From contig JBEKVQ010000005.1 in assembly GCA_049997815.1 (NCBI GenBank), positions 1-38,843 of the forward strand: a stretch of 38,843 nucleotides of DNA, written 5' to 3'. This DNA comes from Minisyncoccia bacterium. Lineage in GTDB: Bacteria; Patescibacteriota; Minisyncoccia; UBA6257; GWB1-50-10. A model generated the notes under the pieces. The model worked only from the letters and a program-made list of their open reading frames with translations. It searched no databases and had not been told where the DNA came from. A program made the position numbers and the translations under genes. Below are positions 1-28,210 of the stretch, piece by piece (within the stretch, counting starts at the first letter, position 1; every line of letters begins with the position of its first letter).

Positions 1-2
1 CG

Positions 3-227
3 GAACACAAGATCAGACATCTTCTTAGTATCTACGGCAGGATGTACATTCAGGAATTCATTCCGCCGCTCTTAAGAGGGGATGGATACGTAGTCTATCG
101 ACTTATCTTGACCTTCAACCCGTCTCAGAAATGTTTCGAGCCGCTGGGTGGTTACTGGGTTGGAAGAAGAAATTTCAAAATTCACGGTACTCCCGACAGC
201 GTATTCGGACCACTCGTTCTGGCGTGA
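3..227 (+). CDS. C-terminal part of a hypothetical protein (possibly ATP-grasp-like), truncated by the window start
   Basis: Frame is open from base 3 (EHKIRHLLSIYGRMYIQEFIPP...) to TGA at 225-227. YIQEFIPP resembles an ATP-grasp motif. Followed by a terminator. Confidence 0.55.
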   Translation, partial: EHKIRHLLSIYGRMYIQEFIPPLLRGDGYVVYRLILTFNPSQKCFEPLGGYWVGRRNFKIHGTPDSVFGPLVLA

Positions 228-251
228 AAACATCGCGCCACGGGCGAATCC

Positions 252-290
252 AAGGGCAAACGTACAACCAAACGTTTGCCCTTTTTATTT
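252..290 (+). terminator. Rho-independent terminator
   Basis: AAGGGCAAACGT-8 nt loop-ACGTTTGCCCTT followed by a T-rich tract. Confidence 0.75.
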
Positions 291-333
291 AACTGTTGCA
301 CTCAATCTTCTTTTATTATATTTTGTAACCAAG

Positions 334-405
334 GGGCGTTTAGTTCAGTGGTAGAACGTTGCATTCACATTGCAAAGATCGCTGGTTCGATCCCAGCAAC
401 GCCCA
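334..405 (+). tRNA. tRNA-Val(CAC)
   Basis: Acceptor stem GGGCGTT/AACGCCC, D arm GTTC/GAAC, anticodon stem TTGCA/TGCAA with loop TT-CAC-AT, T arm GCTGG-TTCGATC-CCAGC. CCA not encoded. Confidence 0.97.
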
Positions 406-574
406 CAAACAAAAGAAGCTGGATAATATGCCAGATTCTTTTGTTTTATGGTGTCGGGGTCGAACCACGGAGAGGGGTCGGGAGAACACGCTCACGGTTT
501 CCCGTGTAGGAAAATAGCGAAGCGTTAGAAACCGAGGGTTTCTAAGGAGCGAAGCGACGTTCGATTCCCAGCAA
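385..574 (+). mobile_element. Putative ~174-bp non-coding mini-element integrated in the tRNA-Val 3' end
   Basis: GTTCGATCCCAGCAA (385-399) recurs as GTTCGATTCCCAGCAA (559-574). An inverted target-like copy lies at 452-466. Core 467-558 is homologous to the minus strand of 28026-28119. Confidence 0.7.
407..446 (+). terminator. Hairpin/terminator directly after tRNA-Val
   Basis: AAACAAAAGAA.CTGG-loop-CCAG.TTCTTTTGTTT. Confidence 0.6.
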
Positions 575-592
575 TGTTGCTATAATAAATCG

Positions 593-1057
593 ATGAAGCC
601 AAACTACATAATTATCCCCGTCATAACGATTCTCACCGCCGCAATCGGGAGCTGGCTTACGAGCGGGGGAATGAACTGGTATAAAACCGTCAATTTTCCA
701 TCCTGGACGCCGCCCGGCTCGGTTATCGGTTTAGTCTGGACCGTCATATTCATCTTGAGCGCGATTTCGGCGCTCATGGTCTGGAATCAAGCCGCTCACG
801 ATAACCGCCTCTGGTGGATTGCCGCCATATTCATTGCGAACGCTGTTTTAAACATTCTCTGGAGCTATTTATTCTTTAACCGGCACCTCATCGGTCCGGC
901 TGTCTGGGAGGCCGGTCTTCTAGGAATATCCGTCATCGCTTTGACCGTTCTGATATGGCCCATCTCCCGGCTCGCTTCGGTTTTTCTCTGGCCCTACGCC
1001 AGCTGGGTGATCTTCGCCACATACCTAACATATTCGGTCTGGTTCTTAAATCACTAA
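593..1057 (+). CDS. tspO: TspO/MBR family tryptophan-rich sensory protein
   Basis: WY..(V)..PSWTPP, VWT, LNILWSYLFF and PYASWVIFATYL motifs; five hydrophobic segments. Confidence 0.92.
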   Translation: MKPNYIIIPVITILTAAIGSWLTSGGMNWYKTVNFPSWTPPGSVIGLVWTVIFILSAISALMVWNQAAHDNRLWWIAAIFIANAVLNILWSYLFFNRHLIGPAVWEAGLLGISVIALTVLIWPISRLASVFLWPYASWVIFATYLTYSVWFLNH

Positions 1058-1089
1058 AACAATCGGGTTAATCTGCTACAATATTAGTC

Positions 1090-1647
1090 ATGCAAAATTT
1101 CGTTCCGAAAAAGATGTTCTTCACGAAAGGCGTGGGACGGCATAAGGAATATCTCCAATCGTTCGAGATGGCTCTCCGCGACGCAGGCATCCAGGAATAT
1201 AATCTGGTGCACGTAAGTTCCATCTTCCCGCCGAACTGCAAGCGCGTCTCGAGAGAGGAGGGAAAGAAATCGCTTGCACCCGGGCAAGTGGTTTTTTGCG
1301 TGATGGCTCGCGAAGCGACGAATGAACCCAACCGGCTCGTGGCCGCTTCGATCGGCTTGGCCCAACCGGCGGATTCCACCAATTACGGATATCTTTCCGA
1401 GCATCACAGCTTCGGCGAAACCGACAATAAGTGCGGGGAATATGCCGAGGACTTGGCCGCCACAATGCTCGCCACCACTTTGGGAGTGGAGTTCGATTCG
1501 GCCGCCGCCTGGGACGAACGAGAACAGGTCTATAAATCCTCCGGTAAAATAATCCGCACTACGAACATTACCCAGTCCGCGGAAGGGGACAAGAACGGGC
1601 TCTGGACGACCGTGGTCGCCGCCGCCGTCTTGGTGTCAGAGGACTGA
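1090..1647 (+). CDS. pdaD: Pyruvoyl-dependent arginine decarboxylase
   Basis: [23 protein letters not shown] (Ser-Ser self-cleavage site), YGYLSEHH, C-terminal WTTVVAAAV. Confidence 0.93.
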
Positions 1648-1653
1648 TTTCCG

Positions 1654-2235
1654 ATGAACATCTCGCGCGAAGATGCTTGGAAACTTTTGACGGAACATGT
1701 GCAAACGGAAAGTTTGCGCCGACATTGCTTGGCCGTTGAAGCCGCAATGCGCGCCTACGCGAAGAAATACGGCGAGGAAGAAGAACTCTGGGGGATCTGC
1801 GGATTGATTCACGACTTTGACTACGAAGAATTCCCTTTCTATAAAAACGAGCACGATTTAAACATTGCCGAAGGCCACCCCTTTAACGGCATAAAGATAC
1901 TGAAAGAGAAGAACTATCCGCCGGAAATCATCGAAGCGATACTGGGTCACGCGACTTATTCCGGCGTGCCGAGAAAAACACAGATGGCGAAATGTCTCTA
2001 TGCCGTGGACGAACTCTGCGGATTCGTAATGGCGCTCGCGCACATTCGGCCTGACAAACTGAGCGGGATGACGACGGAGTCGGTTGAGAGAAATCTGAAG
2101 AAAAAAGGATTCGCCGCAAAGATAGATAGGGGAGAAATTGAAAGGGGAACATCCGAACTTGGCGCGGACAGAGCCGAGCACATTAATCTCGTCATCGGAG
2201 CACTTCAGGCAATCTCCAAAGAACTAGGGTTCTGA
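1654..2235 (+). CDS. HD/HDIG-domain metal-dependent phosphohydrolase
   Basis: LRRHCLAVEAAM, GLIHDFDYE, AILGH and AVDELCG motifs. Confidence 0.88.
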   Translation: MNISREDAWKLLTEHVQTESLRRHCLAVEAAMRAYAKKYGEEEELWGICGLIHDFDYEEFPFYKNEHDLNIAEGHPFNGIKILKEKNYPPEIIEAILGHATYSGVPRKTQMAKCLYAVDELCGFVMALAHIRPDKLSGMTTESVERNLKKKGFAAKIDRGEIERGTSELGADRAEHINLVIGALQAISKELGF

Positions 2236-2236
2236 C

Positions 2237-2659
2237 ATGAAAAACTTAGGTATCTCTAAAGAGAACAAGGGTCGTGGAGTCGGCGTTATCTTAAGAGATA
2301 AAAAAATCCTTTTGATGCACCGCATTAAAGACGGCGAAGAGTATTTCACATTTCCGGGGGGCGGCATTGAAAATATTGAGACACCGGAAGAAACGGCGAA
2401 AAGAGAAGTAGAGGAAGAATTTTCTCTAAAAGTAATCAAGTGCAAGTTTCTTTTTGATATATTCAATAGGACCGGCAAGGAATATTATTTCCTCATAGAA
2501 GATTTTAACGGCGAACCGCAAATCGGCGGCCCTGAAAGACAAAGAATGAGCGAAAATAATTTTTATGAAGCCAAGTGGTTTAATCTTGAGGAAGGACTCA
2601 ATTTGAAGAATCTGTTCCCCGAAGAAGCGAGAAACAAATTAAAAGAACTGATCCTGTGA
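2237..2659 (+). CDS. NUDIX hydrolase
   Basis: Nudix box FPGGGIENIETPEETAKREVEEE. Confidence 0.9.
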   Translation: MKNLGISKENKGRGVGVILRDKKILLMHRIKDGEEYFTFPGGGIENIETPEETAKREVEEEFSLKVIKCKFLFDIFNRTGKEYYFLIEDFNGEPQIGGPERQRMSENNFYEAKWFNLEEGLNLKNLFPEEARNKLKELIL

Positions 2660-2781
2660 TCCCAGGAAGAAAAATAAAGTGGGGAATAGCCGTTTTTCGT
2701 ATCACAACGCAATGGCGTTTCAAGTGTGGATAACTAGCCAAAATAACCTTCAAAAAACATAGATAGAATCTAGCCATACCT

Positions 2782-2813
2782 AAACGAAGCGCTCCATAGG
2801 GGCGTTTTTGTTT
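2782..2813 (+). terminator. Probable terminator hairpin upstream of the dcw promoter
   Basis: AAGCGCTCC-ATA-GGGGCGTTT followed by a T-rich tail. Confidence 0.5.
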
Positions 2814-2824
2814 GGTAGGGAGGA

Positions 2825-2874
2825 TGATATAATTGTGTATGTAAGTGGGGGAAAGTGGATAACTATGGGGATAA
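2825..2874 (+). promoter_or_regulatory. mraZ/dcw promoter (extended -10) with MraZ-type direct repeats
   Basis: TGATATAAT at 2825-2833. (G/A)TGG units at 2845, 2855 and 2865 have 10-bp periodicity, as known for MraZ operators. Confidence 0.7.
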
Positions 2875-2896
2875 CCCCTAAATCTGGGGAAAACTA

Positions 2897-3328
2897 ATGA
2901 TTTTAGGAGAATACAAACATAGTTTAGACACTAAAGGCCGATTGGCGGTACCGGCTAAATTCCGAGAGAAACTCGGCGCCGGCGCCATCATTACCCGCGG
3001 CCTCGATAAGTGTCTTTTTATTTTCGGCGCGAACGAGTGGGAAGTTCTGGTTCAGAAACTCATGAATCTTCCGCTTGCCCAGGCGAATTCGAGAGCCTTC
3101 GTTCGATTGATGCTCGCAGGCGCAAGCGATGCGAAAGTGGACGCGCAGGGTCGCATATTGGTTCCGGATTATTTAAGAAAATACGCCGGATTGAAGAAGC
3201 AAGCGGTCGTCACGGGGCTCTACAATCGCATGGAGGTCTGGGACGAGGAAGAGTGGCAGGCCTACAAGCAGAAAACGGAGGCTTCATCCGATGAAATAGC
3301 GGAAAAATTGGGAGAATTGGGAATTTAA
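2897..3328 (+). CDS. mraZ: Division/cell wall cluster transcriptional repressor MraZ
   Basis: GEYKHSLDTKGRLAVPAKFR and DAQGRILVP repeats; first gene of the dcw cluster. Confidence 0.98.
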   Translation: MILGEYKHSLDTKGRLAVPAKFREKLGAGAIITRGLDKCLFIFGANEWEVLVQKLMNLPLAQANSRAFVRLMLAGASDAKVDAQGRILVPDYLRKYAGLKKQAVVTGLYNRMEVWDEEEWQAYKQKTEASSDEIAEKLGELGI

Positions 3329-3329
3329 A

Positions 3330-4220
3330 ATGCCCCACATCCCCGTTCTTTTAAAAGAGGTTGTGAAAGTGCTGGATCCGCATCCGGGAGAATTCATGAT
3401 AGACGGCACGCTCGGCAGCGGCGGACACGCGAAAGCGCTTTTGGAAAAAATGGGTTCGCGCGGAATGCTTCTCGGATTGGATTGGGATGAAAAGAATCTT
3501 GAAAGCTTTCGGAGAAATAATGAGGGAATGAAGGGAGGCCTTACTCTCGTTCATGAGAATTATGCGAACTTGCCCGAGATACTGGAGAAGCACCGGCTTT
3601 CCAAAGCCGATGGTTTGCTTCTGGATCTGGGATTCTCGAACGAACAATTGGAACACTCCGGCCGAGGATTCAGCTTCTTGAAGAATGAACCGCTCGATAT
3701 GCGCTACGATGCCGAAGACGAAGAAAGGCCGACGGCGGCAAGCATCATAAGCAGCCTATCCGAAAAAGAACTGGCCGACATCATCTATGAATACGGCGAA
3801 GAAAGATTTTCCCGGCAGATAGCCAAAAAGATAATCGAGCGCCGGAGGCGGGGAAGAATAACGACGACGGAAGAATTGGCTAACGTCATCCGAAGCGCGG
3901 TCCCGAAGAACTACGAGCACGGCCGCATCCATCCCGCGACGAGAACGTTTCAGGCACTCCGGATACACGTGAACAACGAGCTCGGCAATCTTAAGACCAT
4001 CCTCGGGAAACTGCCGGAGATAATGGACAAGGGCGGCCGGGTCGCCATCATCTCGTTCCATTCTCTCGAAGACCGGCTGGTGAAGATAAACTTTCAAAAC
4101 CTCGTCAAAGACAAAAAGGCTTCGTTTATAAACAAGAAACCGATAACGGCAGGCCGGGAAGAAGCAAAAAACAATCCCAAAAGTCGCTCGGCGAAGCTCC
4201 GAGCAATAAAAATAATTTAA
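3330..4220 (+). CDS. rsmH: 16S rRNA m4C1402 methyltransferase RsmH
   Basis: HIPVLL, DGTLGSGGHA, PLDMR, HPATRTFQALRI, ISFHSLEDR and SRSAKLR motifs. Confidence 0.98.
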   Translation: MPHIPVLLKEVVKVLDPHPGEFMIDGTLGSGGHAKALLEKMGSRGMLLGLDWDEKNLESFRRNNEGMKGGLTLVHENYANLPEILEKHRLSKADGLLLDLGFSNEQLEHSGRGFSFLKNEPLDMRYDAEDEERPTAASIISSLSEKELADIIYEYGEERFSRQIAKKIIERRRRGRITTTEELANVIRSAVPKNYEHGRIHPATRTFQALRIHVNNELGNLKTILGKLPEIMDKGGRVAIISFHSLEDRLVKINFQNLVKDKKASFINKKPITAGREEAKNNPKSRSAKLRAIKII

Positions 4221-4222
4221 CA

Positions 4223-4540
4223 ATGACCATAATCAGACCCATACAAACGAAAAACGGATTCCGATTCCTGTTCCTGTTCTTTTTGACCATATTCGTAAGT
4301 GGAATCTTCTACGTTTTGGAGTATAATTCATTCGTGAGCGCCCGTTACCAGGTGAATTCGCTCAAGAAACAGCTCGCGGACGTAAGCGCGACGAACACGG
4401 ATTTGAAGAGCCAGCTTTATAAGATGACCGACCCCGTGCAACTGCAAACGCTCGCCGCAAAGTACAATCTCACCCTGGAACGGAAACCGCAATATTTGAA
4501 CCAAAACCAATGGGTGTCCGTTTCCTCCTACTCACAATAG
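4223..4540 (+). CDS. ftsL: Cell division protein FtsL-like
   Basis: Single TM followed by a coiled coil; located between rsmH and the PBP gene. Confidence 0.65.
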   Translation: MTIIRPIQTKNGFRFLFLFFLTIFVSGIFYVLEYNSFVSARYQVNSLKKQLADVSATNTDLKSQLYKMTDPVQLQTLAAKYNLTLERKPQYLNQNQWVSVSSYSQ

Positions 4541-6123
4541 CTTTCGGCATTCTATTCGGGCTCCTTGGCCTGAATATCTACAGTCTTCAAATACAAAAAG
4601 GGGGGTATTACGTGAACAAAGTCCAAGCGAGGGACGAGGCCTTGGCCCAACTGCAACTGCGGCGAGGCCAGATTTTTTTTAACGATAAATACGGAAATAA
4701 CATAACGGTAGCCCTAAATAAGGATTATCCGGTCATTTATGGAGTGCCCAAGGAGGCGGCGGACCCGCAGAAAACGGCGGAAACTCTTTCGCCTATTTTG
4801 AACAAGCCGGTCCAGGAATTGAAAGACGATCTCGACGACCCGACAAGCCTGTTCCATATGGTCGACGAAAAAGTCTCCCAGGAAGAATTGGATGCGGTTC
4901 AGGCGCTTAATCTGCCTGGAATTTACGAAAGCACCAAGCAATATCGATTTTATCCATTCGAGAACTTGGGAGCTCAGCTTCTGGGTTTCGTTGGGTTGAA
5001 CAAGGACACGAGTGCCCCGAAGGGCCTTTATGGCACGGAAAAAAATTACGATGCCCCGCTCGCGGACGGGCATGATATAGCTCTTACGATAGACAGAAAT
5101 CTCCAAGCCCAGGCCGAGCAGATGATTGAAAAGCTTGTGAACGACCACCAGGCGGAGAGCGGGAACGTCATAATCGAAGAACCGAAGACGGGAAAAATCC
5201 TCGCCATCGCCGATTACCCGAATTTCGACCCAAACAACTATAAAAACTATCCGATAAAGGATTTCATAAACTCGGCGGTGCAACTGGTCTACGAACCCGG
5301 CTCGGTCTTCAAGCCCATCACCATGGCGGCGGGAATAGATGCGGGCATCATAACGCCTACGTCCACTTACACCGATTACGGCCACGTTACCATAAACGGA
5401 AAGACCATCACCAACTGGGACCACAAGGCCTACGGACCGAATACCACAATAACCCAGGTCATCGAACGCTCCATCAACACTGGAGCGGTCTTCGCCGAAC
5501 AGAAGATAGGTCGGCCTACTTTCTTGAGTTATCTGAAACTCTTCGGCTTGGGCGTCAAAACCGGCATTGATTTACCGGATGAAGTCACGGGCAGTTTGGC
5601 AAATTTGGAGCGGAAGGGTGCTCAAGACATCGATTACGCCACGGCTGCCTACGGTCAAGGCACTTCGGTCACGCCGCTTCAGATGATAAACGCTTTCTCG
5701 GTCTTCGCGAACGGCGGGTTGCTTATGAGGCCCTACATCAATGCCGATTCGGAACCCTTTGTCGTACGCCGGGTAATAAGCGAGGACACGGCCAAAAAGG
5801 TGATAGAAATGATGCGGTCGGCAGTGGAAAAAGGAGGGGTCGCGACCATCCCGCAATTCAACGTGGCGGGCAAAACCGGCACGGCTTTCATTCCGGATTT
5901 CGTGCACGGCGGATATCTGCCGGACGATTACATCCATACCTTTATAGGGATGGCGCCGTCCACGAATCCCCAGTTCGTGATAATGATAAAGCTCGAAAAG
6001 CCGGAGGTGGGCAAGGAATTGGCGGCACTCACCGTGGTCCCGGCCTTTCAGCAATTGGCCGCCTTCGCTTTGAATTATCTGAATATAACTCCAGATAATA
6101 TCCAAACGCCGAGCAGCAAATAA
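4510..6123 (+). CDS. ftsI: Class B penicillin-binding protein (FtsI/PBP3-like transpeptidase)
   Basis: N-terminal TM, RGQIF, YEPGSVFK (SxxK), SIN (SxN) and GKTGT motifs; dcw position. Confidence 0.9.
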   Translation: MGVRFLLLTIAFGILFGLLGLNIYSLQIQKGGYYVNKVQARDEALAQLQLRRGQIFFNDKYGNNITVALNKDYPVIYGVPKEAADPQKTAETLSPILNKPVQELKDDLDDPTSLFHMVDEKVSQEELDAVQALNLPGIYESTKQYRFYPFENLGAQLLGFVGLNKDTSAPKGLYGTEKNYDAPLADGHDIALTIDRNLQAQAEQMIEKLVNDHQAESGNVIIEEPKTGKILAIADYPNFDPNNYKNYPIKDFINSAVQLVYEPGSVFKPITMAAGIDAGIITPTSTYTDYGHVTINGKTITNWDHKAYGPNTTITQVIERSINTGAVFAEQKIGRPTFLSYLKLFGLGVKTGIDLPDEVTGSLANLERKGAQDIDYATAAYGQGTSVTPLQMINAFSVFANGGLLMRPYINADSEPFVVRRVISEDTAKKVIEMMRSAVEKGGVATIPQFNVAGKTGTAFIPDFVHGGYLPDDYIHTFIGMAPSTNPQFVIMIKLEKPEVGKELAALTVVPAFQQLAAFALNYLNITPDNIQTPSSK

Positions 6124-6130
6124 CCACCTC

Positions 6131-7438
6131 ATGAAACAGCTGATCTTAAAAATATTGACGTTGAAACTGCGGCTCATTGCGAAGCTGACGATTCGCCGCT
6201 ATAAACCGAGCATTATCGGCGTAACGGGAAACGTCGGCAAAACTTCCGCGAAGATGGCCATCTACGCGGCCCTTGCGGGCGATCGGAGTGTCCGCGCATC
6301 ATCCAAAAACTTCAATAACGAACTCGGCCTGCCGCTGAATATCATCGGGGATTGGGAAAAAACGGGCGGAGTTTTCTTTTGGCTGAAGGTCGTTGCTTTC
6401 GGCCTCGGGCAGTTGCTCATCAGAAATCCAAAGTACCCCGAGATACTTATCCTTGAATATGGCGTGGACAGGCCCGGCGATATGAACTATCTTCTCGGCG
6501 TGGCTCGGCCCCAAATGGGCGTCATCACGGCGGTGGGAAACGTACCGGTGCACGTGGAATTCTTCAGCGGACCCGACGGTGTGGCGAAAGAAAAATCAAA
6601 ACTCATCGTTCAGTTACCCACGACCGGCTTCGCGATTTTGAATGCCGATGACCCCCTGGTCCTTAAAATGGCGGAAGATACGCGCGGCCGCGTTATAACC
6701 TACGGCTTTTCGGATAAGGCCGACATAAAAATATTAAGCTTCAGTAACCGCTCGGATATCGACACCGGAGAGGCAGGCATTTCATTCAAAATAAACTACA
6801 ACGGGAAAATTGTGCCGCTCAAAATACCGAATGTGCTCGGAAAAACGGCCGCCTATGCTTCAGCCGCAGGCGCCGCCGTGGGACTTATCTTCGGCGTGAA
6901 TCTCGTGAAAATTGCGGAGAATCTCGGCAAAATGGAAACACCCGCTGGCCGGCTTCGGGTAATGCCGAGTATTAAGGGCTCGTTCATCATTGACGACACA
7001 TATAACGCCTCGCCGCTCGCTATGAGGGAGTCGCTTGAAATATTCAAAGGCCTCAAGGCTAAAAGAAAGATTGCCGTACTCGGGGATATGTTGGAAATCG
7101 GGAAATACACCATGGAAGCGCACGAAGAGATAGGAACGCTGGCCGCCAATCGCGTGGACATGCTCCTCACGGTAGGCCTGCGCGGGAAATTCATCGCGGA
7201 AGGCGCACTTAAAAACAAGATGCCCAAGAACGCGGTCTTTACCTTCGACGACATTCACGACGCCGGGCACTTCCTTCAGGAAAAATTAAGAAGCGGAGAC
7301 GTAGTACTTCTGAAGGCCTCGCAGGGCGTGCGGATGGAGAAAGTGGTCAAGGAAATTATGGCCGAACCCCTCCGCGCCGGCGAACTTCTGGTCCGCCAGG
7401 ACAAAACATGGCTTGAAAAACAGGGGATGTACGAGTAA
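6131..7438 (+). CDS. murF: UDP-N-acetylmuramoyl-tripeptide--D-Ala-D-Ala ligase MurF
   Basis: GVTGNVGKTS P-loop, NFNNELGLPL, DDTYNASP, VLGDMLEIG and LLKAS motifs. Confidence 0.95.
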   Translation: MKQLILKILTLKLRLIAKLTIRRYKPSIIGVTGNVGKTSAKMAIYAALAGDRSVRASSKNFNNELGLPLNIIGDWEKTGGVFFWLKVVAFGLGQLLIRNPKYPEILILEYGVDRPGDMNYLLGVARPQMGVITAVGNVPVHVEFFSGPDGVAKEKSKLIVQLPTTGFAILNADDPLVLKMAEDTRGRVITYGFSDKADIKILSFSNRSDIDTGEAGISFKINYNGKIVPLKIPNVLGKTAAYASAAGAAVGLIFGVNLVKIAENLGKMETPAGRLRVMPSIKGSFIIDDTYNASPLAMRESLEIFKGLKAKRKIAVLGDMLEIGKYTMEAHEEIGTLAANRVDMLLTVGLRGKFIAEGALKNKMPKNAVFTFDDIHDAGHFLQEKLRSGDVVLLKASQGVRMEKVVKEIMAEPLRAGELLVRQDKTWLEKQGMYE

Positions 7439-7469
7439 GGTAGTTATAAGTTACAGGTCATTTGCATAT

Positions 7470-7541
7470 GGCGCTTTCGTCTAGTGGCTAGGACACGACG
7501 TTCTCAACGTCGGAACATGGGTTCAATTCCCGTAAGCGCTA
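7470..7541 (+). tRNA. tRNA-Glu(CTC)
   Basis: Acceptor stem GGCGCTT/AAGCGCT, anticodon stem CGACG/CGTCG with loop TT-CTC-AA, T arm ATGGG-TTCAATT-CCCGT. CCA not encoded. Confidence 0.97.
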
Positions 7542-7706
7542 CAAGTATAAAATGCTCACCTTAGGTGGGTATTTTATACTTTATACATCGGGAATTGAAC
7601 GGAACTTTCGCGCCTGCGGGGCAGGATGAAGCGAAAGTCCGTGGCTTCGGAGGAGCTTTTTGCTTTAGCCAAAAAGCGGGGGAGAAGAATTCCCGTAAGC
7701 GCTACA
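7525..7706 (+). mobile_element. Putative ~163-bp non-coding mini-element integrated in the tRNA-Glu 3' end
   Basis: Exact 19-bp direct repeat AATTCCCGTAAGCGCTACA (7525-7543 and 7688-7706). CGGGAATTGAAC (7589-7600) is the exact reverse complement of tRNA 7521-7532. Hairpin-rich core between them. Confidence 0.72.
7543..7581 (+). terminator. Hairpin/terminator directly after tRNA-Glu
   Basis: AAGTATAAAATGCTCACC-TTA-GGTGGGTATTTTATACTT, an 18-bp stem allowing G-U pairs. Confidence 0.65.
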
Positions 7707-7724
7707 CAAATATAAATGGGGGGG

Positions 7725-7756
7725 GCCTACCCGCCGAAGCTTTAGCGAAGTAGGGC
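7725..7756. repeat. REP-like short imperfect palindrome
   Basis: GCCTACCCGCCGAAGCTTTAGCGAAGTAGGGC, with CCTAC/GTAGG ends. Resembles dispersed 'CCGCCGAAGCTTTAGCGAAGG'-type repeats I recall from groundwater bacteria; one copy in this window. Confidence 0.45.
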
Positions 7757-7815
7757 AACTCTCCGTGGGACGTTAGAACTTTTTTCCGGAAGAAAGCCCG
7801 GGAAGAAGACCACGC

Positions 7816-10800
7816 TTACTGCGCTAAAAGTTTATTAATATATGTGCGGGTTAACGGGCCAAAAAAGCCGATGGCTGGTTTGATGCCCGCCTTTTTCTGA
7901 AACTCTGCGAGTGCACTATTGGTAAGGCTACCGAAATATCCAGTTGCGCCGGCATGGGCGAGCCGTTTTGTAGATGCTCCTGCATTATAACCAATCAGAA
8001 ATTTCTGAAGTCTAATTACGTCATTGCCATACAAACCAACCGAAAGATTATGCATAAAAAGGACTATTGGTATTGGCGGAAATGCAGGTGGAGTGGGCGG
8101 GGGCGTAGAGATGGGGTTACTGTTTGAAGCCGTAACTGTTGGCCACGAAGCAGGTACCCAAACAGCCCCTCCAGCTCCTGCTTGCCCCCCAAATGTTGTG
8201 TCAACTTGAAGGTCAGGATTGCCTCCCATGGCAACCCAAGCGCCTTGACCAGCTGAGTTACTTGTTCTTGCTTGCCAATGATAAGTTGTTCCCGCCATGG
8301 TTAAACCAGTGACAGTGACTGCTCCAATTACTGGAGAACCAGAATAAGAAACAGCATTCCCGGAATTAGTGACGGTGCCACTGAATGCCGTTCCGTTTTC
8401 TTGAACCTCCGCTTGTGGAGTAAGCAAATCAGAAATATTTCCAGAAGACATACCAAACTTAAGCGTTACGGCTGACCCGCCAGTAAAAGACCCTGGCCCC
8501 GGGGTTATTGTCGTTATTCCGTCAGATTTGTATTGAGCCAGTGAAGAGGGAGAACCGGGCAAAAGAAATTCATAGGCCCCAATGTCCGGTGCCGTTCCTT
8601 GAGGACGGGATGTGCCGACAAAATCACTGACAAATCCAGTGATTGTGCCCCCGGAATTAATTAGCGGGGAAGTCGATAGCAAATGAAAGTCCCCAGTTCC
8701 CGAATTTACGAACGCTGGATCAGCGCCAGACCAAGTAGTGCTTCCGGTATCAGTGTAAGTTCCTGTCCCGCCCCTACCGGAGTTTTTGAACCAATTATTG
8801 CTGCCGGTAAGTGTTGCCCCTGCCCCAATAAAAATATCACTTGTTGTTGAGTTGTAAACGACATTATTTTTCAAAGTTGCGTTAGAAGCGGCATTAAAAC
8901 CGTATCTGCCCGAACCAAATATTGTGTTGTAGTAATAATTTAAACCCGCGCTACCGCTACTAATGATTGCGTCGTTTGTTAATCCGTTGAAAATGGAGTC
9001 GTGTAAGTTAATATTGTAACTGCTACTAGAAATTAAAGCTCCGTTGTTTCCACCAAATTTGAAGTCGCCAATGTCCAGATAATTGTAGTCGTTTGTATTT
9101 AATGCCCCTCTATTATCAAAAGGAAGTTTGCCAAATTTAAAATCATCGATGTAAAAAGTAATGGGATTTTGGTAAGCATAAAAATATATCGCATTTAATT
9201 TCCCACCAGCAGTTATAGTTTCTATTCCGTTGACATTAAGCCATAATTGATTATCTATGTACATTTTAAAACTGCCACTCGTTGAATGAAGATAATCTTC
9301 GATATACATTTTATGCCAATTTCCGCTAGTAATACTTTTCCTGCTCGGAATTGTCCAATTGCTATTTTGGGGCGCATCTAAAACAATTTCGTTTGAATAA
9401 CGTGATGTGCTAGAAGGTGCAAGCGTGAGTCTCAGCTCGTAGCTTGAGTTATCCAAAATACGAAACATGTTTTGATCACTACTAGATGTTTGATCGGTAG
9501 GATAATAGAACCAGTAACTAACATACATTGTATCCCCTTCATTTATATTAGTTGCAACCACGTTCTTTAGGCTTAGAGAAACTGTACCTGATGCTCCTCG
9601 AACAACCTTGGCGGATTGTGCTCCTTCGTGAAAAATCGAAGTATCTGCTGTAATCGAACCGCCAGCTTGGTTAAAAGTAAAATTCCATGAGCTCGTTGCA
9701 CTTTCAAATGTTTCGGCTACAGCTGGTGTATTTGCTAAGTTTCCCCCAGAAAAAGTTGAGGTCGTATTCCCCCTCAAAGAAATATTACTCGTTCCGTTTC
9801 CGCTCCACCCCGCAATAAGGGGGCTACTGTAAGTATTTGTGCCAGCGAAACTAACAGTATCTCCCGGCTGAACATCTAATAATTCAAGATAATTAAGTGT
9901 TTTTATAGGTCTTGCTGAAGTGATTCCAAAGTTAGTCCAATCGACCCCATTGGTTCCATCAACATAAAAGGTTGTATTAGTTGGTATGACTCTTCCTATT
10001 GTGGCCCTTAATACCCCGCCCCAGCCATCTCCATAACCGTACAATCCACTCCAGTTTGTGGCATAATGCGAAGCCAAACCGGTGTACTCTGCTCCGTGTG
10101 ATGTGGCGCTGCTGCCAAAATCTTTAACTACTGTCCACGTTGTCCCATGGTCACTTGATACCACAATTTGATTTACATAGTTATTTGTACAAGACCATTC
10201 ATTAATGCCTATTGAACTAAAAACTATATTGCCCGCATCGTCTACATCAGCCCATCCCCAATAACCACATCCGGCAAGTGGGTAGACAACGTTTATAGTT
10301 TGAGTGAAATTATCATCTGTTATCCTTGCGATTGCTCTGGTTTTAGTTCCATATGGCGAGTGCATATCCATACCCACATAAATATAATTAGCATCTGAAG
10401 TTATTGCTGTAACTTCTACCGGAGTTGCGTCCGAAAAAGTTGGCAGAATAAAACTAAAATCACTGGCGGAGATTCCGTCTGCGTTTATTTTATTTGATGG
10501 CAGTTTTAAAATTCCATGATCTTGGTCACCAATTGCAACATAAAGAGCGTCACGATATGGGTCATAATAAACTTGATGAATATGATCTTCTGGCGGTGCC
10601 CAGTTGGCTACATTTGTCCAAGTTCCGTTTGGTCGCCTTCTCCATAAATGACCACCGGTCGTCAAAGTGTGTGTTGTATATTCTCCGGCCCACACATTTC
10701 CGTATTTATCTTCCGTAAAGTTCCATATTTTCCCGGTGCTGGTGGCATCAACGAATTGTTGCACCGGAGTGAAGTTTAATCCATCGGTACTTTCGAAAAT

Positions 10801-25869: not shown

Positions 25870-27984
25870 ATGCCGAAAAAAACCGTTCCGAAAAAAAACG
25901 TAGAGCCGGTTATCGTTGACGTAAGGAAACCGAACTTCAATTACGAACGGCTCAACAAACCGCAGAAACTCAATCTGGCTCACATACCCCGGGCCAAGCC
26001 GCCCCGTTTCATAATTTTAAAAAGAACGCTTCTCGCGATACTTTTCGCCGGACTTTTCGGCCTTGTTGCCGCAATCGTGCTGGTTGTGATAAATCTCCAA
26101 ACGATAAGGGCCACAGTAACGGAGAGCAGTGGGCAGATAATCAGTAATTTCGCTTCGTCAGCCAGTGCGCTCAAAAGTTTTGAACCGGATACGGCCGTAA
26201 ATCTGCTTCAGGAGAACGATCAGTCATTTTCGGACATCAATAACGCCATAAAGAAGGGTGGCATCCAATCGTTCCTGAGCGCCGTCGGCAACCTTATTCC
26301 GATGGTGAGCAATGCATTCGGGTTTCTCGGACAAGCGACGAACCTAAACATAACTTTCTTGGAACTGGCCCAAAACATCCAAGATTTGGAAACGAACGGC
26401 TTCAAATATTTTCAAAGCGATGGACAGGGCCTCTTAACCGCGCTAAAAAACACCCATACCCTAATCCAGCAGATCAGCGAGAAAAGCCAGGACGTGAAGA
26501 ACAGCACCACGAACCTGAAGAGTCTATCGCCGCTCTTCGGAAAAATAGATCAGGACGTAAGCGACCAATATTTGAAATACTCGAGCGAGCTTTTTACCTG
26601 GGACAAGATGCTCGTTAATCTCACGAACCTCCTGGGTTCGGAAACCGACCGCCATATCCTCGTCTTCTTCCAAAATCCGTCGGAGGTCCGCCCGGGCGGG
26701 GGATTCATCGGCAGCTATGCCGATATAACGGTAAATAGCGGCCAAATGAAACAGATGGATGTGCACGACATCTACGACCCCGACGGCCAACTCGCCTTAA
26801 AGGTCATCCCGCCGGAACAACTTCAGACCGTTACGACCGATTGGGGCGCCCGGGATGCCAACTGGTTCTTCGACTTTCCAACCTCCGCCAAGACCGTCAT
26901 CCGGTTCATGGAGGCCTCCAAAATGTATTCGGAAAAGAACGTGACGTTCGATGCCGCCATTGCTTTGAACATAAACGTCGTGAACGACCTGCTCTCCGTA
27001 ACGGGCCCGATACAACTTACGGATTACAATCTGACGATAGACCAGAATAATCTTCTTGAGGAGGTTCAGCGTTCAGTCGAGGCCGGCGCGGACAAAAAAG
27101 CCGGTCAGCCGAAGAAGATATTGATGAAATTGGCTCCCATTCTGCTTCAAAAATTGAACGACCTTTCCACCGCCGACCGGCAAACTCTGTTCGACCGGAT
27201 AAAAGAACGAATAGCGAAAAAGGACATAATGCTTTACGCCAAGGATCCCGATATGGCCGCATTCCTGTCGACGAACGATCTGGACGGTTCGGTTTACGAA
27301 ATGCCGAATAATTTCTGGGGAACGTACCTCGCGGTCGCGAATGCGAACGTCGCGGGCGGCAAGAGCGACGCCTTTGTGGACGAGAGGGTGACCGCGAACG
27401 TGGACGTGGATACGAACGGAAATACTTTCACGAACGTGCAGGTCGCGCGAACCCACAACGGGAATCTAGAGAAAGACCCCTGGTGGAAGGCAACTAACAA
27501 CGATTTCATGCAGATATTCGCCGAACCGAACTCAACGCTGGTTGCGATGACGGGGAACGACGTTAAGCCAAAGTACCAAACAATGGACTACACTAACTCC
27601 AATTACATGACGAATCCGGACTTGGCGGCGACGGAAAAGGGAGAGATCTTCCTCTCCAATCTGAAGACCTGGCTTCGCAACGAATTCGGAAAGAACGTCT
27701 TCGCCACATGGCTCTTGCTTCCGGCCGGCCAAACCAAAACCTTGAACGTTCAGTACCAAACCACCTATAATAGCCCGACTGCCCTGGGCCCGGGCCAGGC
27801 CTACACTTTCATCTTCGAAAGGCAGGCCGGAGTGAAGAACAGTTTGGATGTGACGGTGAATGCACCCTTCAAATATTACTGGGCCGAATCTAACGACACC
27901 GCTTTCCATTATACGAACGACGATCCGGACAAGAGAACGACTCTCACGCTTACTCTGAAGAAGAAGACGGACGACCAACAATAA
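25870..27984 (+). CDS. DUF4012 domain-containing membrane-anchored protein
   Basis: TM anchor; FQNPSEVRPGGGFIGSY, RDANWFFDFPTSA and NVAGGKSD motifs. Confidence 0.88.
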   Translation: MPKKTVPKKNVEPVIVDVRKPNFNYERLNKPQKLNLAHIPRAKPPRFIILKRTLLAILFAGLFGLVAAIVLVVINLQTIRATVTESSGQIISNFASSASALKSFEPDTAVNLLQENDQSFSDINNAIKKGGIQSFLSAVGNLIPMVSNAFGFLGQATNLNITFLELAQNIQDLETNGFKYFQSDGQGLLTALKNTHTLIQQISEKSQDVKNSTTNLKSLSPLFGKIDQDVSDQYLKYSSELFTWDKMLVNLTNLLGSETDRHILVFFQNPSEVRPGGGFIGSYADITVNSGQMKQMDVHDIYDPDGQLALKVIPPEQLQTVTTDWGARDANWFFDFPTSAKTVIRFMEASKMYSEKNVTFDAAIALNINVVNDLLSVTGPIQLTDYNLTIDQNNLLEEVQRSVEAGADKKAGQPKKILMKLAPILLQKLNDLSTADRQTLFDRIKERIAKKDIMLYAKDPDMAAFLSTNDLDGSVYEMPNNFWGTYLAVANANVAGGKSDAFVDERVTANVDVDTNGNTFTNVQVARTHNGNLEKDPWWKATNNDFMQIFAEPNSTLVAMTGNDVKPKYQTMDYTNSNYMTNPDLAATEKGEIFLSNLKTWLRNEFGKNVFATWLLLPAGQTKTLNVQYQTTYNSPTALGPGQAYTFIFERQAGVKNSLDVTVNAPFKYYWAESNDTAFHYTNDDPDKRTTLTLTLKKKTDDQQ

Positions 27985-28145
27985 TGAATAACATCAGGAA
28001 TTTTTGCATAATTGCCCAGATAGACGTCGCGAGTTGCCACACGGCAACTCGCTCCCTAACACCCAGCGGTTTTAGTATTTCCGCCACGGGAAAACTCCCG
28101 TTTTCCCGACCCCTTTCCCGTCAATGTGGGCAAACAAAACAATAA
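27984..28145 (+). pseudogene. Displaced lepA 5' end (14 codons) continuing as a 53-aa ORF through the inserted element
   Basis: MNNIRNFCIIAQID versus LepA MNNIRNFCIIAHID; ATG overlaps the upstream stop codon (TAATG). Confidence 0.75.
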
Positions 28146-28210
28146 TCAACTGACCATCGGACAAATCTATGAACAATATAAGAAACTTCTGCATCATTGC
28201 CCACATTGAC
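28026..28210 (-). mobile_element. Putative 185-bp mini-element integrated in the lepA 5' end and supplying a replacement start
   Basis: Target duplication 27984-28025 / 28169-28210. GTCAATGTGGGCAA (28120-28133) is the exact reverse complement of 28197-28210. Core is homologous to 467-558. Confidence 0.75.

Follow-up and report, generated by a model that had tools for sequence, protein, structure and literature searches.

The 38.8-kb window analysed here is the whole of contig C5 of a Minisyncoccia bacterium (JBEKVQ010000005.1), the genome of which (G000) comprises 744 kb in 20 contigs and is 99% complete. Three gene ends in this window, the 3' ends of tRNA-Val(cac) and tRNA-Glu(ctc) and the start of lepA, are present in two copies, with a compact non-coding sequence between the intact and the displaced copy (Table 1). 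These sequences, which may be small integrative elements, have a common layout in which a conserved core is preceded by an arm, a short stretch that is the complement of the intact gene end. T1-7 denotes target positions 1-7, and t* a short element-borne end that resembles those positions. Comparisons were made within a sample of 101 genomes of the same order and a phylum-wide sample of 151 genomes, both of which include G000.

The tRNA-Val unit contains, in this order, a replacement tRNA 3' end, a hairpin spacer, the arm, a core belonging to what is here called family A, and a 7-nt t*. The core consists of GGGGTCGGG, the P2 hairpin, the motif GGAAA, the P3 hairpin with AAACCG, a small hairpin and GCGAC. 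At lepA the same order is found on the minus strand, where codons 1-14 are followed by a spacer, the complement of codons 11-14, the core and degenerate codons 14-1. Alignment of the tRNA-Val core with the minus strand of 28024-28121 gives a common core of ∼80 nt, with a mean column identity of 70% over arm, core and flanks. The earlier note on this DNA, made from its letters alone, had quoted these sequences and their collinear blocks, all of which are present in the window, and had proposed that the elements form a single non-coding family sharing a conserved core. For the tRNA-Val and lepA type this proposal is borne out by further copies in G000 and by covarying hairpins, as described below. 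For the lepA copy a riboswitch-like function was considered and discarded, since the copies at tRNA genes would require the opposite strand of the core.

Table 1. Positions of the elements, their parts, their targets and the displaced gene ends in the window
Feature	Position	Strand	Basis or remark
tRNA-Val(cac), intact target	334-406	+	ARAGORN, Rfam tRNA, sequence; T1-7 = 385-391, putative crossover 391/392
Val element, putative mobile unit, family A, 174 nt	392-565	+	Junction rule; absent after identical tRNA-Val in G004, G001
Val spacer with terminator-like hairpin	407-449	+	Sequence; equivalent hairpins in other copies
Val arm	456-467	+	Reverse complement of tRNA-Val 383-394, 11/12 positions
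Val family A core	468-558	+	Alignments; R1 match 463-558, 67.4 bits; covariation
Val t*	559-565	+	7 element-borne nt resembling T-loop
Displaced original tRNA-Val 3' end, decaying	566-582	+	
tRNA-Glu(ctc), intact target	7470-7542	+	T1 at 7521; crossover between 7524 and 7525
Glu element, putative mobile unit, family B, 163 nt	7525-7687	+	
Glu spacer hairpin	7543-7588	+	
Glu arm	7589-7600	+	
Glu core	7601-7683	+	
Glu t*	7684-7687	+	
Displaced tRNA-Glu 3' end copy	7688-7706	+	19 nt identical to 7524-7542
Displaced original lepA start, codons 1-12	27984-28018	+	ATG overlaps upstream stop codon (TAATG); empty-site alleles
lepA element, putative mobile unit, family A, 185 nt	28019-28203	-	Absent from G001, G002, G004
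lepA t*	28019-28025	-	
lepA core	28026-28119	-	
lepA arm	28120-28133	-	
lepA spacer/5' untranslated region	28134-28168	-	
Replacement lepA codons 1-12	28169-28203		
Host-side T1-7, lepA codons 12-14 (GTPase AHID motif)	28204-28210	+	

The third element, at tRNA-Glu, carries a core that is not matched by the covariance model of family A (R1, see below) and that forms a family of its own by BLAST (family B), present in 13 of the 101 genomes of the order sample. Family B copies show the arm-core-displaced-copy layout of family A. Their crossover falls between target positions 4 and 5, so that the replacement end begins at position 5, and tandem copies elsewhere have a period of 163-164 nt, matching the 163-nt unit of the window. 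Eight of the 11 family B arms are perfect, on the author's reading of the alignments. A third element with the same layout had been noted at tRNA-Glu, and one integration system had been proposed; the layout is as described, but the Glu core is not homologous, and one system may not serve all copies.

Cores, arms and targets

R1 was built from 13 G000 copies of the family A core, collected by BLAST and alignment, and finds 13 copies in the 744 kb of this genome. In the order sample 58 of the 101 genomes are positive, with ∼337 matches in all and up to 18 per genome, and in the phylum-wide sample 13 of the 151 are. Within one genus the copy number ranges from 13 down to 0. Over 105 aligned copies the two modelled hairpins are paired at 95.1%, as compared with 85.7% in shuffles. 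Both sides change in 10 of the 16 base pairs, the observed covariation score is reached by none of 500 shuffles, and no shifted pairing register comes near it. Optional hairpins are inserted at three fixed places of the core, and both strands are predicted to fold into one closed shape. A search against Rfam 15, including its self-cleaving ribozymes, returned only tRNAs above threshold in the window and nothing credible at 300-650 with E-values up to 10; ten other copies gave no credible Rfam match at E-values up to 0.1. The absence of an Rfam match agrees with the earlier remark that the elements were not recognised as a described family. Two exact core patterns gave no match in viral contigs, although degenerate copies would escape such scans.

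Several variants of the family A core were observed. Two G000 copies (C9:12832-12942 and C3:69323-69433) end in a terminator-like hairpin instead of GCGAC, are convergent with a tRNA 3' end and have an arm that matches the acceptor end, not the T-loop; immediately before the C9 copy stands a fragment of a family B core in reverse orientation. A small hairpin, GCTCCGAC...GTCGGAGC, is either terminal or located between the two main hairpins (C12, C3:69197, C9, C3:52158, L022, L040), a placement which suggests that hairpins are exchanged as modules between copies. In addition, a GC-rich palindrome of ∼20 nt (CCTGCCTGCCGGCAGGCAGG type) occurs seven times in G000 (C1:88699, C2:59678, C3:52116, C3:62598, C7:2003, C7:2348 and C15:5526) and not at all in shuffles. 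Three family A cores contain it, as do displaced tRNA ends in other genomes (L022, L083, L130), and it looks like a separate tiny inserting hairpin.

The relation between arm and target was evaluated by comparing the 12 nt before each core with 320 nt of upstream sequence in 88 analysable copies, 17 of the 105 copies being left out because they are sited too close to the end of their locus. The arm matches the intact upstream gene end at 11 or more of the 12 positions in 65 of the 88 copies, and in none of the 88 when the arms are shuffled, in line with the target-specific arms claimed before. In the 61 copies used for junction statistics, 0-6 mismatches between arm and intact target occur at each of positions 1-11, and the arm fits the intact target better than the displaced copy. 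The majority of targets are tRNA T-loops; one is a tRNA 5' end (L040). Among GTPase genes, lepA (window, L019), the elongation factor G gene (EF-G; L014, L025, L117) and another translational GTPase gene (C12, L094) are targeted, rplK is targeted both at its start and at its end (both in L018), and further protein-gene ends are found at C6, L063, L104 and L115. At least ten kinds of target are represented, and the arms change accordingly. In every case the core is situated outside the gene, and the intact gene end is the one next to the arm. The core consequently points the same way as a gene located before it and is antisense to a gene located after it, as is seen in its sense orientation downstream of tRNAs and its antisense orientation upstream of lepA, EF-G and rplK.

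Junctions, displaced gene ends and cargo islands

Differences between the intact target and the displaced copy peak at positions 3, 4, 6 and 7 (14-21 of the 61 copies) and drop to 6-9 of the 61 at positions 8-11. In the young copies L106, L113, L033 and L064 the two are identical from position 8 onward over ∼27 to 56 nt, and 2-4 of the first 7 nt differ. Moreover, identical t* versions, such as GTTCGCT and GTGAGAT, recur at different tRNAs. The sharp change between positions 7 and 8, together with the recurring 7-mers, indicates that the first seven nucleotides after the core are the element's own (t*) and that the crossover of family A lies at 7|8. What the earlier note had described as a degenerate direct copy of the target is consequently a displaced copy as far as its greater part is concerned, its first 7 nt being element sequence.

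Insertion is documented by sites that lack the element. In G001, G002 and G004, which belong to the same genus, the upstream gene abuts lepA, and an identical tRNA-Val gene occurs without the element in G004 and G001 and with a decayed copy in G003. The displaced lepA ATG retains its native overlap with the upstream stop codon. When displaced and live starts are compared, at lepA as well as at EF-G, most of the differences are synonymous, as expected if one of the two copies evolved as a gene in another lineage. These empty alleles and the ATG overlap support the view, put forward earlier, that the disrupted gene end is restored on insertion.

The extent of the mobile unit follows from tandem arrays. 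Tandem units at L107 and L113 have spacer and arm in common, and at L107, L113, L106, L042 and L025, where the live and displaced ends have similar spacers, the remnant of an older arm or core comes after the downstream one. This remnant implies tandem insertion of a whole unit, comprising gene end, spacer, arm, core and t*. An in-situ target-site duplication was considered for the young copies and rejected, because an older arm/core remnant lies past their downstream spacer. The unit measures ∼150-190 nt, and kilobases when it carries cargo.

Cargo-bearing versions, a search for which had been suggested, are represented by two islands on contig C3. Here a 163-nt left end, 85-88% identical between the two islands, comes after both tRNA-Ala(cgc) and tRNA-Lys(ctt), and the islands close ∼6.5 kb and 1.45 kb further on with a homologous right end that consists of an arm, a family A core and a displaced tRNA end. 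The larger island encodes Mrr-like, PIN, ClpP-like and helix-turn-helix proteins. No recombinase is encoded in either island, and the proteins next to their cores (253 and 388 amino acids) belong to no Pfam or NCBIfam family and are unrelated to one another. The left ends of these islands (C3:52000-58700 and 62520-64100, L011) contain, in this order, a terminator hairpin, a segment that resembles an arm and is complementary to a T-loop, and a third kind of core-like sequence; they may represent a third family.

Two further observations concern the tRNA-Val locus. An open reading frame (ORF) for a TspO-like protein (593-1057; NCBIfam match below the cut-off) comes immediately after the displaced end of tRNA-Val. 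The ORF is missing at the same position in G003 and G004, where the orthologue of window ORF 1090-1647 comes after the tRNA locus, and it is an insertion or deletion separate from, and beside, the tRNA-Val element. In G003 (C25:10790-10990, L046) the final 30 nt of a tRNA-Val of the G000 type are preceded, without a gap, by a different tRNA-Val allele and followed by the decayed end of a family A core; a second kind of replacement event may have taken place there.

Mobilisation in trans and competing explanations

No catalyst is encoded in the window or beside the copies, as the earlier note had stated for the window. Clustering of the ORFs around 42 copies yields target genes as the only recurring neighbours. 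G000 contains one tyrosine recombinase (PF00589), one large serine recombinase and two reverse transcriptase (RT) genes, none of which is near a copy; it has no match to the IS110 family (PF01548) or to the Y1 HUH transposase (PF01797), and only a sub-threshold match to TnpB (PF07282). Co-occurrence, which had been suggested as a check, was counted as tallies over the listed genomes, 58 core-positive and 43 core-negative, of the order sample. RT is present in 24 of the 58 core-positive and 16 of the 43 core-negative genomes, serine recombinase in 21 and 16, respectively, and tyrosine recombinase in 99 of the 101 genomes, mostly as exactly one gene, including those with 13-18 copies. None of the three is associated with the core.

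The RT genes of G000 (C1:66722-71100 and C7:23686-24213; L043-L045) lie away from the copies, one of them ∼2.4 kb from a 470-aa serine recombinase, and may belong to diversity-generating retroelements or a prophage. In some relatives the tyrosine-recombinase domain is split by ∼1.3 kb inside single reading frames of 720-860 aa (G042:C4:31744-33534, G045:C9:28304-30097, G058:C46:6833-8635, G061:C1:10221-12002), which suggests that the Xer-like gene contains an intein or another large insertion.

The preferred interpretation, which is given a probability of about one half, is that the sequences are non-autonomous site-specific integrative mini-elements, which are mobilised in trans and whose arm pairs with the target. 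As the anatomy of the copies shows, the unit begins with the replacement end of the target gene (from position 8 of the target onward in family A, from position 5 in family B), followed by a spacer with a terminator or, at gene-start targets, a 5' leader. Then come an arm of 12-15 nt, complementary to target positions 1 to ∼13 and hence spanning the crossover, the conserved folded core, and t*, which resembles target positions 1-7 but is mismatched. This unit would enter a conserved gene end through one crossover, the distance of which from the core is constant, in such a way that the gene runs on into the replacement end of the element, while the original end is pushed downstream and decays. 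The arm would recognise the target by base pairing. The intermediate would be circular, small and probably single-stranded. Arm and t* would pair in it, giving a hairpin that mimics the duplex of the target but has mismatches in the overlap; such an arm:t* hairpin, its mismatches being conserved, is predicted. A host enzyme acting in trans would exchange a single strand where the mismatch ends, and replication would complete the process, comparable to CTX-phi and attC recombination. The mismatch of t* would set the crossover point and hinder excision. The only candidate enzyme in nearly every genome would be the single Xer-like tyrosine recombinase, the alternative being a junction-resolving enzyme.

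A number of observations weigh against this interpretation. No enzyme is assigned to integration, the Xer-like protein being a candidate. Xer-type recombinases recognise fixed sequences, and the targets found here, unlike such sequences, have no common motif. In 23 of the 88 copies the arm matches at 10 or fewer of the 12 positions, and two G000 copies, the C9 and C3 variants with terminator-like hairpins mentioned above, deviate in geometry. Arm-target mismatches show no clear wobble bias (15 G-T, 10 A-C and 14 other), and in the core helices 29 G-T wobbles are found versus 18 A-C; since neither bias is decisive, they establish neither RNA nor DNA as the pairing molecule, nor the active strand. 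The cores at lepA and at the C12 GTPase gene are 100% identical over 72 nt, with different arms. In G000 and G059, furthermore, the cores of the lepA elements are almost identical and the unusual terminal hairpin is the same, yet the spacers are unrelated, which is unexpected for a unit that is transferred whole. Near-identical cores with different arms and unrelated spacers imply that the arms may be re-made or corrected locally and need not be inherited guides. Finally, a circular or excised form was not seen. The contigs of four DNA runs covering 1-8000 contain no joints and have loose ends only at assembly breaks in the repeated core; being assembled contigs, they cannot show rare circles or empty alleles.

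It is conceivable, though held to be distinctly less probable than trans-mobilisation, that the arm is a true guide, and that an element of ∼170 nt, made up of arm and folded core, directs its own insertion at matching gene ends by means of housekeeping enzymes or its own fold. The element would supply a spare gene end, so that the host survives, and such insertion would be programmable without a recombinase belonging to the element. Alternatively, the arm could be copied from, or corrected against, the adjacent target.

Among the rival explanations the best surviving one, although unlikely, is that the elements are hitch-hikers of homologous recombination, which spread by DNA uptake and RecA through the flanking copies of the gene end. 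The arm would then be an inverted repeat that is kept identical by template switching (quasi-palindrome correction), or would serve in stability or termination. This explanation accounts for the lack of a dedicated enzyme, either encoded or co-occurring, and for arms that track local synonymous variants of the target, as at lepA in G000 and G059. Identical cores at different targets in one genome, as from gene conversion, and spacers that differ between near-identical elements fit it as well. It meets a difficulty at tRNA sites, where the right-hand homology is only ∼15 nt, a length too short for efficient RecA recombination. Moreover, it does not explain how new targets are colonised (a tRNA 5' end, both ends of rplK, three GTPase paralogues), why two unrelated cores have the arm-core-t* design in common, or why the mismatch of t* is conserved and sharply bounded.

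Less probable still is a derivation from integrase-bearing islands, in which the mini-elements are decayed ends comparable to cis-mobilisable elements (CIMEs). In that case the islands would be moved by a tyrosine or large serine recombinase, the cores would be arm-type or accessory parts of their attachment site, and the mini-elements would be deletion derivatives moved, if at all, by a passing full-length relative. Cargo-bearing members with conserved left and right ends would be in keeping with this origin, as would one G028 island with a 498-aa large serine recombinase next to its tRNA-Ala side and a recombinase fragment beside the L016 copy. Tandem accretion at tRNA genes is likewise typical of such elements (PMC5704250). 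In contrast, the serine recombinase is similarly frequent in core-positive and core-negative genomes, and G019, G024, G027, G033 and G055, with 9-18 copies, have no serine recombinase and a single tyrosine recombinase. Attachment sites set by a protein predict neither arms that track ten targets nor near-identical cores at different targets.

It is improbable, to a greater degree than the island origin, that arm and core form a retroelement-like RNA copied at the target by an RT supplied in trans (target-primed), with the gene-end copy as a long target-site duplication. The two RT genes of G000, the RNA-like covarying helices with G-U pairs in the core, and the tandem G-A pairs that some t* versions would form with the arm (the author's own reading of the motif) could be taken in this sense. 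Against these stand the similar RT frequencies given above, the lack of RT in the high-copy genomes G019, G024, G025, G027, G033 and G055, and the older arm/core remnants after alike spacers, which point to tandem insertion and not to in-situ duplication. The least probable reading, that the elements are host-beneficial structured RNA genes or regulators pairing with the adjacent tRNA or mRNA, with the duplications incidental, agrees with the strong conservation of the core across genera and its covarying helices but not with an orientation that tracks the gene end instead of the direction of transcription, with presence and absence within one genus (13 to 0 copies), with the existence of empty sites, or with two unrelated cores in one layout.

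Relation to known systems and implications

The closest mechanistic parallels are attC sites, treated below, and CTX-phi and other integrative mobile elements exploiting Xer (IMEX), which are described as having no integrase of their own and an attachment site formed by two inverted, target-like segments that pair within one strand (PMC3442271; PMC4246890). The mismatched centre of this site leads to a single-strand exchange that is finished by replication and is irreversible, and tandem copies are formed (PMC3442271; PMC4246890). However, IMEX always target the Xer-recognised dif site, whereas the elements described here occupy many unrelated gene ends without a common motif; they are only ∼170 nt long, carry a replacement gene end, and have Xer as a candidate only. 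Integration at dif via XerC/D sites was not found, the targets being tRNA, GTPase, rplK and other gene ends (dif was not located).

A second parallel exists with the bridge (seek) RNA of IS110/IS1111 insertion sequences, reported in 2024, which is said to be a structured RNA with short segments that complement the target to the left and right of the crossover and set specificity by pairing. This RNA is encoded in an insertion sequence that also encodes a DEDD recombinase, and has two loops, which bind donor and target. Similarly, the complementarity of the arm spans the crossover (positions 1 to ∼13, crossover 7|8), as a single arm known here from DNA alone. In contrast to the IS110 system, PF01548 is missing from G000, a single arm takes the place of the loops, and insertion duplicates and replaces the end of the target.

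With respect to gene restoration, the elements resemble tRNA integrative elements and CIMEs, which insert into the 3' part (T-loop region) of tRNA genes, restore the gene, leave a displaced partial copy and accrete in tandem (PMC5704250). As in tyrosine-integrase elements and CIMEs, direct repeats of the gene end flank the element and the gene is restored; integrative elements with this restoring effect on tRNA genes, and derivatives of them without an integrase, are already known (PMC5704250). CIMEs, however, rely on a related integrase with a protein-defined site, whereas here a folded core and a target-complementary arm are found at no fewer than ten kinds of target, with no co-occurring integrase: G000 and most relatives have one PF00589 gene regardless of copy number, and none lies beside a copy. 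Integron attC cassettes are small, often non-coding and recombined as folded single strands that are read by structure, with replicative resolution (PMC4792948). In contrast to the present elements, they need IntI, insert at attI, have a stem that does not copy the target, and replace no gene end.

Repetitive extragenic palindromic (REP) sequences, REPINs and IS200/IS605 mini-elements are likewise multi-copy, non-coding, hairpin-forming and trans-mobilised, but they depend on a Y1 (HUH) transposase with guides of 4-5 nt, are intergenic and duplicate no gene end. An adjacent or co-occurring RT, as expected for retrons, diversity-generating retroelements or target-primed elements, was found neither in G000 nor over the 101 genomes. 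Miniature inverted-repeat transposable elements have inverted repeats at both termini and a short target-site duplication of fixed length, whereas here 20 to >60 nt of a gene end are repeated and the arm lies inside the unit and not at its terminus (DDE transposase families were not searched). A large serine recombinase was found in one cargo island (G028), with no association over the 101 genomes. A search of the literature and Rfam, keyword-based and thus no proof that the elements are unpublished, returned no papers beyond those cited here for comparison and no description of a target-complementary arm beside a folded core, of more than ten kinds of target, of two unrelated cores with one design, or of the lack of a co-occurring recombinase.

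Even on a cautious reading, these elements are a main source of plasticity in genomes of 0.6-0.8 Mb, with up to 18 copies per genome; they are inserted at tRNA, EF-G, LepA and L11 genes and carry defence islands. They explain many partial duplications of tRNA genes and gene starts, which annotation pipelines would misread, and the conserved cores constitute two new structured nucleic-acid motifs suited to Rfam. If the arm sets the target, this would be the second natural case of insertion programmed by base pairing after the IS110 bridge RNAs, much smaller and without a dedicated recombinase, and would be of clear interest for genome engineering. If the arm is a true guide, at least two unrelated cores would use such a system, which would also move defence-gene cargo in these very small genomes.

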